Assembly (NCBI RefSeq): GCF_003334255.1
Contig: NZ_QOWU01000082.1
Length of the DNA stretch: 11,964 nt
Origin: Escherichia coli
Lineage (GTDB): Bacteria; Pseudomonadota; Gammaproteobacteria; Enterobacterales; Enterobacteriaceae
Direction: 5' to 3' (one strand)
Shown here: positions 1,843-8,104 of the stretch, piece after piece
Layout of the letters: each line of letters begins with the position of its first letter
Numbering within the stretch: the stretch's first letter is position 1
Notes under the pieces: generated by a model
Told to the model about the DNA's origin: nothing
Databases searched by the model: none
Seen by the model: only the letters and a program-made list of their open reading frames with translations
Position numbers and translations under genes: made by a program

Positions 1843-2535
1843 CTAGTGATAACCACGCGCGGTCATAAAATCCGTAATCGCTTTTTCTGCATCAACCAAC
1901 ACCTGTTCCAGTGGCTGATTGGCATCGATATCAACCAGTTGTGCACCACCAAAGGTTAACTGTGGCGTTATGGCAATCTTCCTCGCCAGCGATTCCCGTT
2001 TATGGTCGGGTTTACGTGCACAGGCAACTTCAAGGTCAACATTGAGTTTGATGACCAGATCAGGCTTATGGCTCGCCATCCAGTGAAACGCTTTACGTTC
2101 CTGGCTTGCCAGCCATGAGACAAAACGACCACCTTCAACGTTAGGTGGGAACACCGTACCATCGTAAGCGCCAGGAATTTGGTCCTGAGGATAACGGTCG
2201 GTTAGAACAATTAACCCGCGACGACGACAGGCAAGCATATGACGAAAGCGCAGTAAGCGACGGGCGACAAACGCTGTAATTACCAGCGCCGGAACTGGTC
2301 CAGGCAATTTTTTTGCTGTTTTCACCTGATTTCGTTCAATTGTTTTATGTAAGGATTTTCCCATCAACGGTAATTTTGTCACTGCACGACCGACATTTCC
2401 GGCCTGTTTTCCTAAATGAACTCTTTCGGCAGCACCATATTTTTCGACAACGGTAATAAGATGTTCACACACCGTTGACTTGCCTGAACCATCGCTACCA
2501 ATAACGGCAATTAATGGAGGTGTTATTGACTGCAT
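1843..2535 (-). CDS. yghT: Thymidylate-kinase-like P-loop NTPase / putative ATP-binding kinase (YghT-like)
   Basis: 230-aa ORF with ATG start and AAGGA Shine-Dalgarno 8 nt upstream; TAG stop. Walker [17 protein letters not shown] motif, and ARKPDH / TPQLTF motifs shared with the two paralogs downstream. Confidence 0.85.
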
Positions 2536-2708
2536 GAATATATCCTTTAATTTAAATATCCATTAAAAATATTTATTTGGTTAATATGTTTTTATGAAAG
2601 CGTAATTCAGGTCAATGTCACAATTAACCATTGTCACAATAAGGTTGAACGGATATTCTGAGCACGGACCACGTAATATTCAATACATTATTTACTGCCG
2701 GGTTTTTC
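2536..2708. promoter_or_regulatory. AT-rich divergent intergenic region between yghT (minus) and yghS (plus); holds candidate promoters and a direct-repeat operator candidate
   Basis: 173-bp AT-rich spacer between divergently oriented starts. Direct repeat TGTCACAAT at 2616-2624 and 2632-2640; the second copy overlaps a possible -35 TTGTCA (2631-2636) with a -10-like TATTCT (2654-2659). Confidence 0.4.
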
Positions 2709-3422
2709 GTGAATCAACGTAATATGTCAATAATTAATTCCACGCCAGTGCGTGTTATTGCCATTGTAGGATGTGATGGTTCAGGTAAATCGACCCTCAC
2801 GGCAAGCCTGGTAAATGAACTGGCAGCAAGAATGCCAACAGAACACATTTATCTCGGGCAATCGTCCGGGCGAATTGGCGAATGGATTTCACAGCTCCCT
2901 GTTATTGGCGCACCTTTTGGGCGTTATCTGCGAAGTAAAGCGGCACATGTGCACGAAAAGCCCTCAACACCGCCTGGCAATATTACTGCACTGGTTATCT
3001 ATCTGCTTTCCTGCTGGCGGGCGTACAAGTTTCGCAAAATGTTGTGTAAAAGCCAGCAAGGCTTTCTGCTCATCACCGACCGCTACCCGCAGGTTGAAGT
3101 GCCGGGGTTTCGCTTTGATGGCCCGCAATTGGCAAAAACCACGGGCGGTAACGGTTGGATAAAAATGTTAAGGCAGCGCGAGCTGAAGCTGTACCAATGG
3201 ATGGCATCTTATTTGCCCGTATTGTTGATTCGTCTTGGCATTGATGAACAAACCGCGTTTGCGCGTAAACCTGACCACCAACTGGCAGCGTTACAGGAAA
3301 AAATCGCCGTTACGCCGCAACTGACATTCAATGGCGCAAAGATCCTTGAACTGGATGGGCGACACCCCGCCGATGAAATTCTGCAAGCGTCACTACGCGC
3401 AATTCACGCCGCGCTTTCCTGA
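2709..3422 (+). CDS. yghS: Thymidylate-kinase-like P-loop NTPase / putative ATP-binding kinase (YghS-like)
   Basis: 237-aa ORF from the GTG at 2709; an in-frame ATG at 2724 is an alternative start, and neither has a strong Shine-Dalgarno. Walker A IVGCDGSGKST, DRYPQ, ARKPDH, TPQLTF. TGA stop at 3420-3422. Confidence 0.82.
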   Translation: MNQRNMSIINSTPVRVIAIVGCDGSGKSTLTASLVNELAARMPTEHIYLGQSSGRIGEWISQLPVIGAPFGRYLRSKAAHVHEKPSTPPGNITALVIYLLSCWRAYKFRKMLCKSQQGFLLITDRYPQVEVPGFRFDGPQLAKTTGGNGWIKMLRQRELKLYQWMASYLPVLLIRLGIDEQTAFARKPDHQLAALQEKIAVTPQLTFNGAKILELDGRHPADEILQASLRAIHAALS

Positions 3423-3453
3423 TCACCAAAATGGATAGGGGATGATTTAACGA

Positions 3454-4212
3454 ATGGATGCACTACAAACTCAAACTGTTAATAGTACAACCGCGCCGCA
3501 GCCCAACTACATTCCGGGGCTGATTGCGGTGGTCGGGTGTGATGGCACCGGTAAATCCACACTGACCACCGACCTGGTGAAATCGCTGCAACAACACTGG
3601 CAAACCGAGCGGCGCTATCTGGGGCTGCTCTCCGGCGAAGACGGCGACAAAATCAAACGATTGCCGTTGGTTGGCGTCTGGCTGGAACGGCGACTGGCGG
3701 CCAAATCCTCGAAAACCCAAAGCATGAAAACCAAATCTCCGGCGCTATGGGCGGCGGTGATTATGTACTGCTTCTCGCTGCGAAGAATGGCGAATCTACG
3801 CAAGGTTCAGCGACTGGCGCAAAGTGGCGTTCTGGTGGTCAGCGATCGCTTCCCGCAGGCTGAAATTTCGGGCTTTTATTATGATGGACCGGGGATTGGC
3901 GTCGAACGTGCGACCGGGAAAATCAGCATGTTTCTGGCGCAGCGCGAACGGCGTTTATACCAACAAATGGCGCAATATCGCCCGGAATTAATTATTCGCC
4001 TGGGCATTGATATTGAGACTGCCATCTCCCGCAAGCCTGACCATGACTATGCCGAGCTGCAGGACAAAATCGGTGTCATGTCGAAGATTGGCTATAACGG
4101 CACAAAAATTCTTGAGATTGATTCCAGAGCGCCCTACAGCGAAGTGCTGGAACAGGCACAGAAGGCGGTTTCTCTGGTTGCCATCGTTTCTGACCGCCGA
4201 AGTTTAACTTAA
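3454..4212 (+). CDS. yghR: Thymidylate-kinase-like P-loop NTPase / putative ATP-binding kinase (YghR-like)
   Basis: 252-aa ORF with ATG start and AGGGGA about 12 nt upstream. Walker A VVGCDGTGKST, DRFPQ, SRKPDH. Paralogous to the two preceding kinase-like ORFs. Confidence 0.87.
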   Translation: MDALQTQTVNSTTAPQPNYIPGLIAVVGCDGTGKSTLTTDLVKSLQQHWQTERRYLGLLSGEDGDKIKRLPLVGVWLERRLAAKSSKTQSMKTKSPALWAAVIMYCFSLRRMANLRKVQRLAQSGVLVVSDRFPQAEISGFYYDGPGIGVERATGKISMFLAQRERRLYQQMAQYRPELIIRLGIDIETAISRKPDHDYAELQDKIGVMSKIGYNGTKILEIDSRAPYSEVLEQAQKAVSLVAIVSDRRSLT

Positions 4213-4257
4213 GGCTGGCGGGATACTTTTTACTATCAACGATAAGGTCAGGCTGAA

Positions 4258-5607
4258 TTGGCGGGTTTTAACATCAAACATTGGTTTGCAGATGGCGCGT
4301 TTCGCACCATTATTCGCAATAGCGCCTGGTTAGGCTCCAGTAATGTCGTGAGCGCCTTGCTGGGTCTGTTGGCGCTCTCGTGTGCCGGTAAAGGGATGAC
4401 GCCCGCCATGTTTGGCGTACTGGTGATTGTGCAATCGTACGCCAAGTCGATCAGCGATTTTATTAAGTTTCAGACATGGCAACTGGTGGTTCAGTACGGA
4501 ACACCAGCATTAACCAACAATAATCCGCAGCAATTCCGCAATGTCGTCTCATTTTCCTTCTCGCTGGATATCGTCAGCGGCGCGGTGGCGATTGTCGGTG
4601 GCATTGCCTTACTGCCATTCCTTTCCCATTCATTAGGTCTGGATGACCAAAGTTTTTGGCTGGCAGCGCTCTATTGCACGCTCATTCCTTCAATGGCTTC
4701 CTCCACGCCGACCGGCATTCTGCGTGCGGTAGATCGCTTCGATTTAATTGCTGTACAGCAGGCGACGAAACCTTTTCTGCGCGCAGCGGGGAGCGTCGTA
4801 GCCTGGTATTTTGACTTTGGTTTTGCGGGTTTTGTTATTGCCTGGTACGTGTCGAATCTGGTTGGCGGCACCATGTACTGGTGGTTTGCCGCGCGCGAAT
4901 TACGCCGCCGAAATATCCATAACGCCTTCAAATTGAATCTGTTTGAGTCTGCCCGATACATTAAAGGCGCGTGGAGTTTTGTCTGGTCAACCAACATTGC
5001 CCACTCCATCTGGTCGGCGCGTAACTCGTGCAGCACAGTGTTGGTGGGGATCGTGTTAGGACCCGCTGCCGCCGGGTTATTTAAAATCGCCATGACATTC
5101 TTCGACGCCGCCGGAACGCCAGCGGGTTTGCTGGGTAAAAGTTTTTACCCAGAGGTGATGCGTTTAGATCCGCGCACCACCAGACCGTGGTTGTTAGGTG
5201 TGAAGTCCGGTTTACTGGCGGGCGGAATCGGTATTCTGGTGGCGCTCGCGGTGTTGATCGTCGGCAAGCCGCTCATTTCGCTGGTGTTTGGCGTTAAGTA
5301 TCTCGAAGCGTATGACCTGATTCAGGTGATGCTGGGCGCAATTGTGATTTCGATGCTGGGCTTCCCTCAGGAGTCATTGCTATTGATGGCGGGAAAACAG
5401 CGCGCTTTTCTCGTGGCGCAAACCATCGCCTCAATCGGCTACATCGTATTGCTGTTCATGTTCTGTCATCTGTTTGGTGTGCTGGGAGCAGCGTTTGCTT
5501 ACTTCGGTGGGCAATGTCTGGACGTGGCGCTCTCGTTAATTCCAACCTTAAAGGCATTTTTTCAGCGCCATTCCTTGCTTTATAACGCAGCCGGAGAGAA
5601 ATCCTGA
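4258..5607 (+). CDS. yghQ: MOP-superfamily (Wzx/polysaccharide-biosynthesis-type) inner-membrane flippase-like protein (YghQ-like)
   Basis: 449-aa ORF, hydrophobic throughout with many predicted TM helices. The only start that keeps the first TM segment is the TTG at 4258 (AAGG 10 nt upstream; in-frame TAA at 4243-4245; first in-frame ATG not until codon 47). The stop overlaps the next start (TGATG). Confidence 0.8.
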   Translation: MAGFNIKHWFADGAFRTIIRNSAWLGSSNVVSALLGLLALSCAGKGMTPAMFGVLVIVQSYAKSISDFIKFQTWQLVVQYGTPALTNNNPQQFRNVVSFSFSLDIVSGAVAIVGGIALLPFLSHSLGLDDQSFWLAALYCTLIPSMASSTPTGILRAVDRFDLIAVQQATKPFLRAAGSVVAWYFDFGFAGFVIAWYVSNLVGGTMYWWFAARELRRRNIHNAFKLNLFESARYIKGAWSFVWSTNIAHSIWSARNSCSTVLVGIVLGPAAAGLFKIAMTFFDAAGTPAGLLGKSFYPEVMRLDPRTTRPWLLGVKSGLLAGGIGILVALAVLIVGKPLISLVFGVKYLEAYDLIQVMLGAIVISMLGFPQESLLLMAGKQRAFLVAQTIASIGYIVLLFMFCHLFGVLGAAFAYFGGQCLDVALSLIPTLKAFFQRHSLLYNAAGEKS

Positions 5608-6431
5608 TGATGAGAAAATATTTCCCGCTTGAGGCGAGCGAGCGTCTATTTGTTGCGATTGAAGAAGATGATGTCGTTGATGCACAGGTTAGTTTGCCGC
5701 CGACTATTGCACTAAGTTGTACCACCGAAATCATTCATGATAATTACGCGTTATGCCTGCAATTCTGGCTCAATGGCGTTGATCGTCAGGAGTTACTGCG
5801 TTTAGTTCGCAAACAAGCCAAAGGCGATGAGCTGACTGCTGATGAGCGCAAACAATTTAAATACATGCGAGCGCGCTACAAGCACCTGCGTTTTGCGCAA
5901 CGGCTGTATTTAAAGAAGCATCAGGCCGGATTTTTATTCGGCAAAACGACCGTTTTTCTGGGGCGTTTTCAGGACGGCTTTCGTAACGGTAAGAAAAATA
6001 TTGTGTCGTATTACGGCAACCTGTTACGGATTTATTTAAGCTCTCCGGTCTGGTCGTTGGTGAACTATTCATTACGCCATAGCCAGTTAGAAAGCGTAAG
6101 CAGTTTTATTGCCTATCGGCAAAAGCAAATGCATACCCTGAAAGAGATTATTGCCAAACCGCGACTAACCGGTAGGGAATTTCATGATGTGCGAAAAATC
6201 ATCAGCCAGCAGGTTTCTTATTACGACACCTTAAGATCGCTTGATCCTGAAAATAAAGAGGCGTTACAGATATCCCGCTTCCTCGCCGCCATTAATGGCC
6301 TGATGGGAGATAAACACGACGACATGGTGGCGGATGATATGGAAAACCGCCAGTCGTATGATGCACCGGTGGCGCTGGATAGCGATATTCGTCAGCGCTT
6401 AGAGCTGCTGATTTCGCGTTTTCCGCTATAG
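5607..6431 (+). CDS. Hypothetical soluble protein, basic and probably helical; no recognisable catalytic motif
   Basis: 274-aa ORF starting with tandem ATG ATG, GGAGAG Shine-Dalgarno 8 nt upstream, and a 1-nt overlap with the yghQ stop. No signal peptide or TM segment seen. Confidence 0.75.
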   Translation: MMRKYFPLEASERLFVAIEEDDVVDAQVSLPPTIALSCTTEIIHDNYALCLQFWLNGVDRQELLRLVRKQAKGDELTADERKQFKYMRARYKHLRFAQRLYLKKHQAGFLFGKTTVFLGRFQDGFRNGKKNIVSYYGNLLRIYLSSPVWSLVNYSLRHSQLESVSSFIAYRQKQMHTLKEIIAKPRLTGREFHDVRKIISQQVSYYDTLRSLDPENKEALQISRFLAAINGLMGDKHDDMVADDMENRQSYDAPVALDSDIRQRLELLISRFPL

Positions 6432-6439
6432 CCGGAGCA

Positions 6440-7003
6440 ATGATGTCATCTCGTTTGATTATTGCGTTGATTATCATGCTCTTAGCCCCGGGTGTGCAGG
6501 CACACAATTTCGTCACTGGCAAAACGGTTACCCCTGTTTATATCCAGGAAGGCGGCGAGCTGCTTCTGAATAGCGACGACGAAATTCACTACCAAAAGTG
6601 GAACAGCACACAATTAGCGGGAAAAGTCCGCATTATTCAGTATATCGCCGGGCGTAAGTCGGCGAAGAAAAAGAACTCACTGTTAATTAAAGCGGTTGAA
6701 GCGGCAAACTTTCCGCAGGATCGTTTTCAGCCCACCACCATTGTGAACACCGATGATGCCATCTTTGGTACTGGCTATTTTGTTGTTGGCAAAATCGAAA
6801 AAAATAAACGCCGCTATCCGTGGGCGCAATTCGTTATTGACGGCAATGGACAGGGACGCGTTGCCTGGCGCTTGCCGGAGCAGAGTTCAACCATTCTGGT
6901 GCTGAATAAAGCCGGGCAAATTCAGTGGGCAAAGGACGGCAGCCTGACGCCGGAAGAGGTAGATCATGTCATTGCGTTGGCGCAGAAACTGATCAATGAA
7001 TAA
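6440..7003 (+). CDS. Secreted/periplasmic protein of unknown function with a Sec signal peptide
   Basis: 187-aa ORF. N-terminus MMSSRLIIALIIMLLAPGVQA|HN has an n-region, hydrophobic core and an AxA-type cleavage site. GGAG lies 2 nt before the first ATG (6440) and 5 nt before the second (6443), so the true start may be 6443. Confidence 0.8.
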   Translation: MMSSRLIIALIIMLLAPGVQAHNFVTGKTVTPVYIQEGGELLLNSDDEIHYQKWNSTQLAGKVRIIQYIAGRKSAKKKNSLLIKAVEAANFPQDRFQPTTIVNTDDAIFGTGYFVVGKIEKNKRRYPWAQFVIDGNGQGRVAWRLPEQSSTILVLNKAGQIQWAKDGSLTPEEVDHVIALAQKLINE

Positions 7004-7033
7004 AAAACTCAAAGGATTGAGGGCGTTAGTGAG

Positions 7034-8104
7034 ATGAAGCTGGTTGAACACTACATCATGCGTGGTACGCGCCGTCTGGTGCTGATTATCGTCGGTTTTC
7101 TGATCTTTATTTTCGCCAGCTACTCCGCACAGCGTTATCTGACCGAAGCGGCAAATGGGACATTAGCTCTTGATGTTGTGCTGGATATCGTTTTCTACAA
7201 AGTACTGATTGCACTGGAGATGTTGTTACCTGTTGGTCTGTATGTGTCAGTTGGCGTGACGCTAGGGCAGATGTATACCGACTCGGAAATTACCGCTATC
7301 TCTGCGGCGGGGGGCAGTCCGGGACGCTTGTACAAAGCCGTTCTTTATCTGGCGATACCGCTAAGTATTTTTGTCACCCTTCTGTCGATGTATGGTCGTC
7401 CGTGGGCTTATGCGCAGATTTATCAACTGGAGCAGCAGTCGCAGTCGGAGCTGGATGTTCGCCAGTTGCGGGCAAAGAAATTTAACACTAACGATAACGG
7501 ACGAATGATCCTTTCGCAGACGGTTGATCAGGATAATAATCGCCTGACTGACGCGCTGATTTATACTTCTACTGCCAATCGAACCCGCATTTTCCGCGCC
7601 CGTTCGGTTGATGTGGTTGACCCATCACCCGAGAAACCGACCGTTATGTTGCACAACGGCACTGCCTATCTTATCGATCATCAGGGGCGTGATGACAACG
7701 AACAGATCTACCGTAATCTGCAATTACATCTGAATCCGCTGGATCAAAGCCCTAACGTCAAACGCAAAGCGAAATCGGTCACGGAGCTGGCGCGCTCCGT
7801 CTTTCCAGCCGATCATGCCGAACTGCAATGGCGGCAAAGCCGTGGCCTGACCGCATTGTTGATGGCGCTGCTGGCCATTTCATTAAGTCGGGTAAAACCG
7901 CGGCAAGGGCGATTTTCAACGTTATTGCCACTGACGTTGCTGTTTATTGCCATTTTTTATGGCGGTGACGTCTGCCGTACGCTGGTGGCTAACGGCGCGA
8001 TTCCCCTCATTCCTGGTTTGTGGTTAGTACCCGGACTCATGCTAATGGGCCTGCTGATGCTGGTCGCACGCGACTTCTCTTTGCTGCAGAAATTTTCCCG
8101 ATGA
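7034..8104 (+). CDS. LptF/LptG-family (YjgP/YjgQ) permease, paralog 1
   Basis: 356-aa ORF. N-terminus LVEHYIMRG followed by a TM helix, family-typical SEITAISAAGGSP motif after the third hydrophobic segment, a hydrophilic middle domain and C-terminal TM helices. This matches LptF/LptG architecture as I recall it. Confidence 0.85.
   Translation: MKLVEHYIMRGTRRLVLIIVGFLIFIFASYSAQRYLTEAANGTLALDVVLDIVFYKVLIALEMLLPVGLYVSVGVTLGQMYTDSEITAISAAGGSPGRLYKAVLYLAIPLSIFVTLLSMYGRPWAYAQIYQLEQQSQSELDVRQLRAKKFNTNDNGRMILSQTVDQDNNRLTDALIYTSTANRTRIFRARSVDVVDPSPEKPTVMLHNGTAYLIDHQGRDDNEQIYRNLQLHLNPLDQSPNVKRKAKSVTELARSVFPADHAELQWRQSRGLTALLMALLAISLSRVKPRQGRFSTLLPLTLLFIAIFYGGDVCRTLVANGAIPLIPGLWLVPGLMLMGLLMLVARDFSLLQKFSR

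Follow-up and report, generated by a model that had tools for sequence, protein, structure and literature searches.

Translation of yghQ in Escherichia: a probable UUG start in place of an ancestral ATG

The gene yghQ lies within an 11,964-nucleotide stretch of non-K-12 Escherichia coli DNA (assembly GCF_003334255.1, contig NZ_QOWU01000082.1; the whole stretch is called the window here), which covers the pitB-yghT-yghS-yghR-yghQ region. The yghQ coding sequence (4258-5607, + strand) specifies a protein of 449 amino acids, which Pfam, Foldseek, the ratio of nonsynonymous to synonymous substitution rates (dN/dS) and synteny mark as a Wzx-like candidate flippase of the MOP superfamily. We assign the principal start of yghQ in Escherichia to the UUG at position 4258, with a probability of about 0.85. 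Orthologs outside the genus begin at an ATG located five codons further downstream. The comparison of these sequences suggests that the TTG start is a genus-specific replacement of this ATG, which was lost in Escherichia.

The UUG codon at 4258 and its Shine-Dalgarno sequence

Sequence and translation place an in-frame TAA (4243-4245, +) that closes the yghQ frame upstream. The Shine-Dalgarno (SD) region of the TTG start, TAAGGTCAGG (4243-4252, +), was recognized by its duplex energy with the anti-SD and by its conservation. It includes AAGG at 4244-4247, embedded in TAAGGT, and the 3' end of this AAGG is 10 nt ahead of the TTG. Between the stop and the first transmembrane segment (TM1; residues 13-46, 4294-4395, +) there is neither an ATG nor a GTG, and the TTG (4258-4260, +) is the sole canonical start codon. 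TM1 itself was assigned from an AlphaFold2 helix, a Pfam match and coding constraint. The remaining in-frame canonical codons ahead of codon 47 (GTG31, TTG34 and TTG38) all fall within TM1, and the ATGs at 4292 and 4343 are not in the yghQ frame. The first in-frame ATG is codon 47 (4396-4398, +), directly 3' of TM1. A sequence-only reading of the window had noted the TAA, an AAGG upstream of the TTG, the TTG and the codon-47 ATG, all of which are confirmed, and had named the TTG as the likely start. It is still the best candidate. The RefSeq annotation produced by PGAP begins the coding sequence at the same TTG (WP_000896896.1, 'lipopolysaccharide biosynthesis protein'), and MAGFNIKHWF is the N-terminus of every E. 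coli protein call in a large public collection.

The anti-SD duplex at the TTG has an energy of -6.5 kcal/mol, the best among eleven candidate codons and within the top ~9% of window positions. This pairing is stronger than that at the ATG of 46 of 48 orthologs, for which the median is -4.0 kcal/mol. The properties of a UUG-initiated gene are found together here: an in-frame UUG after a stop, an SD of this strength at functional spacing, constraint on the coding sequence downstream, and no better start that would preserve the conserved protein.

Over bases 4000-5700 the window has 100% identity with strain 300709 (NZ_CP025903.1), and 4619 of 5426 complete E. coli genomes match this segment; the region is absent from ~15% of them. 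Among the 4619 genomes carrying the region, 4299 are identical over 4225-4312. Eight Escherichia sequences show no variation in the TAAGGTC block, in the TTG or in the 15-nt in-frame distance to codon 6, while indels occur in the intergenic DNA a few bases upstream. All Escherichia sequences examined have the TTG, a TAAGG-type SD and the 15-nt spacing; among them is a metagenomic relative with 88% protein identity (L058), where the SD reads AAGAAGG and pairs at -5.2 kcal/mol. In the sequences compared, it is this joint conservation of TTG, SD and spacing, not the mere presence of an NTG codon, that surpasses chance.

Initiation at UUG 4258, served by the UAAGG SD 10 nt upstream, would yield the 449-residue protein. 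Its first five residues, formylMet-Ala-Gly-Phe-Asn, would form a short disordered tail ahead of TM1, presumably on the cytoplasmic side. An AlphaFold2 model of YghQ based on 70 homologs has a mean pLDDT (predicted local distance difference test score) of 93.5 and a predicted template modelling score of 0.90, and its first long helix spans residues 13-46. Residues 1-10 reach a mean pLDDT of 64, and the five extra residues are disordered. Natural variants of this N-terminal extension occur (loci L057 of E. coli MS1737 and L055 of E. coli A42): G3V is present in two strains and N5S in strain SCPM-O-B-8794.

The ancestral ATG at codon 6

Orthologs of YghQ were collected from Pseudocitrobacter, Citrobacter, Shimwellia, Pluralibacter, Klebsiella indica, Serratia, Erwinia, Pantoea, Rosenbergiella, Dyella, Luteibacter, Rhodanobacter and Sphingomonas. 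They are 444-445 amino acids long, 50-85% identical, and begin with MK(H/N/R)WF. At the DNA level all 48 non-Escherichia loci have an ATG aligned with E. coli codon 6. In Escherichia, by contrast, this codon is ATC (Ile6; 4273-4275, +), as found in E. coli, E. whittamii, Escherichia sp. E1V33, Escherichia sp. MOD1-EC7003 and the 88%-identity metagenomic relative, and all these sequences carry the in-frame TTG with its own SD five codons (15 nt) earlier. An exact ATC-to-ATG variant of the 88-nt stretch 4225-4312 was found in none of the 4619 E. coli genomes. By parsimony, Escherichia lost the ancestral ATG, and ATC 4273-4275 is its relic. The proposal of a TTG start is supported for Escherichia; that the orthologs begin at an ATG five codons downstream had been missed.

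The position taken by the TTG would be part of an older sequence element. In 12 non-Escherichia loci, from Shimwellia, Serratia, Mangrovibacter, Sodalis and Erwinia (L010, L015-L019, L022, L023, L029, L036, L048 and L053), a conserved non-coding motif, ATGGCTGGTTT followed by a run of T, lies just upstream of the main ATG. Its counterpart in E. coli is TTGGCGGGTTTT (window 4258-4269) and in Citrobacter amalonaticus CTGGCGGGTTTT. The E. coli TTG start is the position homologous to the ATG of the motif. From the motif ATG to the main ATG the distance is 15, 16 or 17 nt, set by the length of the T run. Only in Serratia proteamaculans and S. liquefaciens is the motif ATG in frame, and gene callers there sometimes give a protein beginning MAGFTMK. 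The upstream ATG of ATGGCTGGTTT was considered as an upstream open reading frame or as a true start and was rejected on both counts, as the spacing varies among 15, 16 and 17 nt and the frame is not conserved in the orthologs. As a separate observation, a spacing of 17 nt creates a mini-open reading frame of six codons (MAGFLP or MAGFLL) that overlaps the main start in an ATGA.

In an ancestor that already had the 15-nt in-frame spacing, the protein could have survived the loss of the downstream ATG. The AUG would then have changed to AUC in the Escherichia lineage, with initiation shifting to the in-frame NUG 15 nt upstream, which already lay within the conserved motif. None of the nearest outgroups displayed has the TAAGG SD, which may have been recruited or selected afterwards. 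This is probably how the switch came about. The Escherichia start would thus be a clean and datable case of a migrating start codon whose SD evolved along with it, neat although minor.

Several observations limit the certainty of the UUG as principal start. A full-text literature search for yghQ gave no report on its start site, and the TRAINSPOTTER N-terminomics supplements have no entry for yghQ, b2983 or Q46841. In codons 2-5 there are synonymous (A2A, G3G) as well as nonsynonymous (G3V, G3D, N5S) variants, and these codons therefore show no clear coding signature of their own. An upstream in-frame NTG is also present in ~15 of the 48 orthologous loci, that is, in about a third by chance. 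Finally, GGCGGG lies 7 nt ahead of the ATC in E. coli (GGCAGG also occurs), and for E. coli and E. whittamii the anti-SD pairing energy of this element is -5.3 to -6.2 kcal/mol.

The last of these points bears on an alternative in which ribosomes still initiate, mainly or partly, at the near-cognate AUC of codon 6 through the ancestral ribosome-binding region. The product would then be a 444-residue protein collinear with the orthologs, and the upstream TTG would be incidental or a minor second start. The universal use of this position as the start in the 48 non-Escherichia loci fits such a reading, as do the lack of clear purifying selection on residues 2-5 and the finding that AUC gives measurable initiation with an N-terminal Met (bioRxiv 10.1101/063800). 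We nevertheless consider it improbable. In reporter measurements AUC reaches only 1-2% of AUG, as opposed to 10-100% for UUG, and the only confirmed non-canonical starts listed for E. coli are the AUU codons of infC and pcnB (Hecht et al., bioRxiv 10.1101/063800). Moreover, the SD-like element ahead of ATC is lost in L058 (-1.5 kcal/mol) while the SD of the TTG is retained, and the TTG and its in-frame spacing are invariant throughout the genus. We infer that ribosomes initiate at the UUG rather than at the AUC. It is slightly less probable still that yghQ is a natural AUC-initiated gene, or a dual-start gene with two N-terminal isoforms; if so, the change from ATG to ATC would be an evolved means of throttling this candidate sphingolipid flippase.

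The loss of the ancestral ATG could also be taken as a mark of decay, with yghQ unexpressed in Escherichia and none of the candidate starts in functional use. Truncated or frameshifted copies of yghQ in K-12 and some other strains, together with the ~15% of complete genomes without the region, would agree with this. Such decay is very unlikely, since the yghQ open reading frame is intact (at least 80% coverage of query 4000-5700) in 4168 of 5426 complete genomes. Whole-gene dN/dS is 0.03-0.08, and within Escherichia 0.03-0.055 despite a dS of 0.34-1.4 accumulated since the ATC state arose; yghQ is therefore maintained by selection. Neither a dN/dS close to 1 nor widespread inactivation among Escherichia lineages was seen. 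In E. coli MS1737 both yghR and yghQ are frameshifted and marked as pseudogenes by PGAP, which shows that the module decays occasionally in individual lineages.

The coding segment ahead of codon 47 and the K-12 allele

A start at the first in-frame ATG (codon 47, 4396) is excluded. Such a start, or one at ATG51, would give a product of ~400 amino acids without TM1. In its favor, ATG is the commonest start codon, and ATG51 is preceded at ~10 nt by UAAAGGG, which pairs at -5.1 kcal/mol. At ATG47, however, the SD-like AAAGGG (-4.2 kcal/mol) abuts the ATG with zero spacing. The earlier argument that this start would delete the first transmembrane segment is borne out by the AlphaFold2 model, in which the helix of residues 13-46 ends just ahead of Met47; this helix is TM1 of the 12-transmembrane MOP fold.

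Coding constraint on codons 7-46 points the same way. Three other Escherichia sequences differ from the window here by 7, 12 and 12 synonymous and no nonsynonymous changes, and the 88%-identity relative by 12 synonymous changes and one nonsynonymous change. The segment is kept in all 48 non-Escherichia orthologous loci. In the alignment of homologous N-termini, 123 full-length remote homologs (25-51% identity) were included. Homology starts at query residue 20 or before in 113 of the 123, and none has an N-terminus mapping to residue 47 or beyond, the latest being residue 27. The result that the sequence-only reading had named as contrary to its proposal, homologs consistently starting at codon 47 or later, was thus not obtained. 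The Pfam Polysacc_synt match opens at residue 19, corresponding to model position 2. Taken together, the comparative data effectively refute a start at ATG47 or ATG51, which we regard as the least probable of the alternatives.

The expectation that a shorter K-12 annotation would be truncated at the N-terminus did not hold. The curated yghQ of NC_000913.3 (b2983 / YP_026192.1; 3131341-3132408) has 355 codons and uses the same TTG start, 45 nt past yghR. Its 3' end is cut off by IS5LO, which ends at 3131340 and abuts the gene. Translation of the K-12 locus from the TTG matches the window protein exactly for 355 residues and then meets a stop at the IS5 junction. PGAP, which begins the K-12 gene at this TTG as well, flags the copy as 'missing C-terminus'. 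Existing E. coli annotation and the window thus do not differ at the 5' end; the window allele is intact at 449 codons, whereas the K-12 allele has 355.

The inference of a TTG start was correct but already known from public annotation. Because RefSeq and the curated K-12 entry both contain it, it carries little weight beyond annotation hygiene. For practical purposes, cloning of yghQ from E. coli should begin at the TTG or at codon 6 and never at ATG47. The K-12 allele is unsuitable, its last 94 residues being gone, which is relevant to work on sphingolipid transport.

YghQ and the sphingolipid locus

YghQ matches PF01943 with an independent E-value of 1e-8 (residues 19-280, model positions 2-249) and PF13440 with one of 3.9e-7. 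Foldseek gave 55 matches at E<=0.001, and among the matches listed the best 50 are all MOP proteins (probability 1.00). YghQ matches the family profile across the N-terminal lobe, TM1 included, and has a two-lobed fold superposable on solved MOP structures; by its predicted structure it is a 12-transmembrane Wzx-like MOP flippase. Compared with the lipid III flippase WzxE (PDB 9g9n/9g9p), the TM-score is 0.77 normalized to the query and 0.83-0.84 to the target, with a root-mean-square deviation of 3.4-3.5 Å over ~428 columns. The two-lobed all-helical fold and a short N-terminal tail before TM1 are common to YghQ and Wzx-type MOP proteins (WzxE, MurJ, MATE), with fold matches spanning ~430 columns, but sequence identity to Wzx-type flippases is just 13-20%. 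None of the named NCBIfam MOP equivalogs (such as WzxC PRK10459) includes YghQ; the best hit, NF007773, reaches 32.5 bits, far below the cut-off of 273. YghQ therefore represents a distinct MOP subfamily and is not WzxC, WzxE or MurJ. A family-profile sequence search of the PDB returned only weak matches in the C-terminal lobe (E = 0.002-0.01), which are uninformative on the N-terminus, and PADLOC defence models matched neither YghQ nor the downstream gene product Orf274.

The genomic context of yghQ is sphingolipid synthesis and LptF2/G2, not O-antigen or enterobacterial common antigen genes. Downstream of yghQ follow an open reading frame of 274 amino acids, a ytfJ-family gene and paralogs of lptF and lptG; the opposite strand carries spt and genes for an acyl carrier protein, an NAD-dependent epimerase/dehydratase and a fatty acyl-AMP ligase. 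The genes of a sphingolipid locus (lptF/lptG paralogs, spt, acyl carrier protein, epimerase and fatty acyl-AMP ligase) are thus found within 6 kb downstream. This is the dihydroceramide cluster of E. coli B/BL21 (spt, acpR, epi, aasR, yghO), characterized biochemically by Padilla-Gomez et al. (PMC9386255). The Caulobacter crescentus locus is alike in that a predicted flippase gene lies amid spt, acpR, epi/cerR, aasR and lptF2/lptG2. There, the LptF2/G2 paralogs are required for sphingolipid transport (bioRxiv 10.64898/2026.04.12.717747), and CC_1166 is described as a 'potential flippase' (PMC11324152); according to the Klein laboratory the sphingolipid flippase is still to be identified (PMC11087976). 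YghQ is likened to CC_1166 by locus context. A cluster look-up of the remote homologs returned names from Sphingomonas, Roseomonas and alphaproteobacterial metagenome-assembled genomes, with no Caulobacter entry.

Orthologs of other Enterobacterales, Xanthomonadales and Sphingomonas share the same neighbors (the Orf274 partner, ytfJ, lptF2/G2 and spt). The Orf274 gene lies directly downstream in every fetched locus that extends past yghQ. In Erwiniaceae yghQ is linked to lptF2/G2 and spt, and in Dyella, Luteibacter and Rhodanobacter spt-acpR-epi stands immediately upstream of yghQ on the same strand. Synteny thus supports the assignment of YghQ to the sphingolipid system. As a candidate flippase, it probably has a ceramide-derived lipid as its substrate, judging from genomic context.

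In K-12 the whole stretch from yghQ codon 355 to yghO has given way to an IS5 element (L002 5323-6453 / NC_000913.3 3130146-3131340; window 5323-11964). Orf274, the ytfJ-like gene, lptF2/lptG2, spt, acpR, epi and aasR have been lost, and K-12 is therefore without the whole module for ceramide synthesis and transport. The module is retained in ~77% of complete E. coli genomes (the 4168 of 5426 with at least 80% of query 4000-5700).

On its 5' side yghQ is preceded by yghR (3454-4212, +), a P-loop kinase-like gene taken from the open reading frame list and the RefSeq annotation of the identical sequence. From the yghR stop (TAA, 4210-4212) to the yghQ start the gap is 45 nt, and because of this short distance the two genes are probably co-transcribed. 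A scan between them for promoters or terminators gave nothing beyond shuffle expectation and no convincing terminator. Folding of the mRNA around the yghQ start was not significant (z = -0.67), and structural regulation is therefore not proposed. On its 3' side the ATG of Orf274 (5607-6431, +), a conserved partner gene whose product has a CHAD-like fold, overlaps the yghQ stop (TGATG).

Two groups of neighboring genes carry names that may fit the locus poorly. In window 1843-4212, yghT (-) and yghS and yghR (+) encode three paralogous P-loop proteins annotated as 'dTMP kinase', with scores of 24-32 bits against dTMP kinase cut-offs of 83. Their synteny with yghQ holds in most Enterobacterales; in Sphingomonas formosensis it is weaker (37-50% identity). 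Rather than thymidylate kinases, YghT, YghS and YghR are candidate kinases of the sphingolipid pathway, with a head group or a lipid as substrate. A second lptF and a second lptG, at window 7034-9180 (+) in the sphingolipid cluster, are named in RefSeq like the housekeeping lipopolysaccharide permeases. By analogy with Caulobacter LptF2/G2 (bioRxiv 10.64898/2026.04.12.717747) these copies are probably sphingolipid-specific, and the RefSeq names lptF and lptG are therefore likely to be misleading here.
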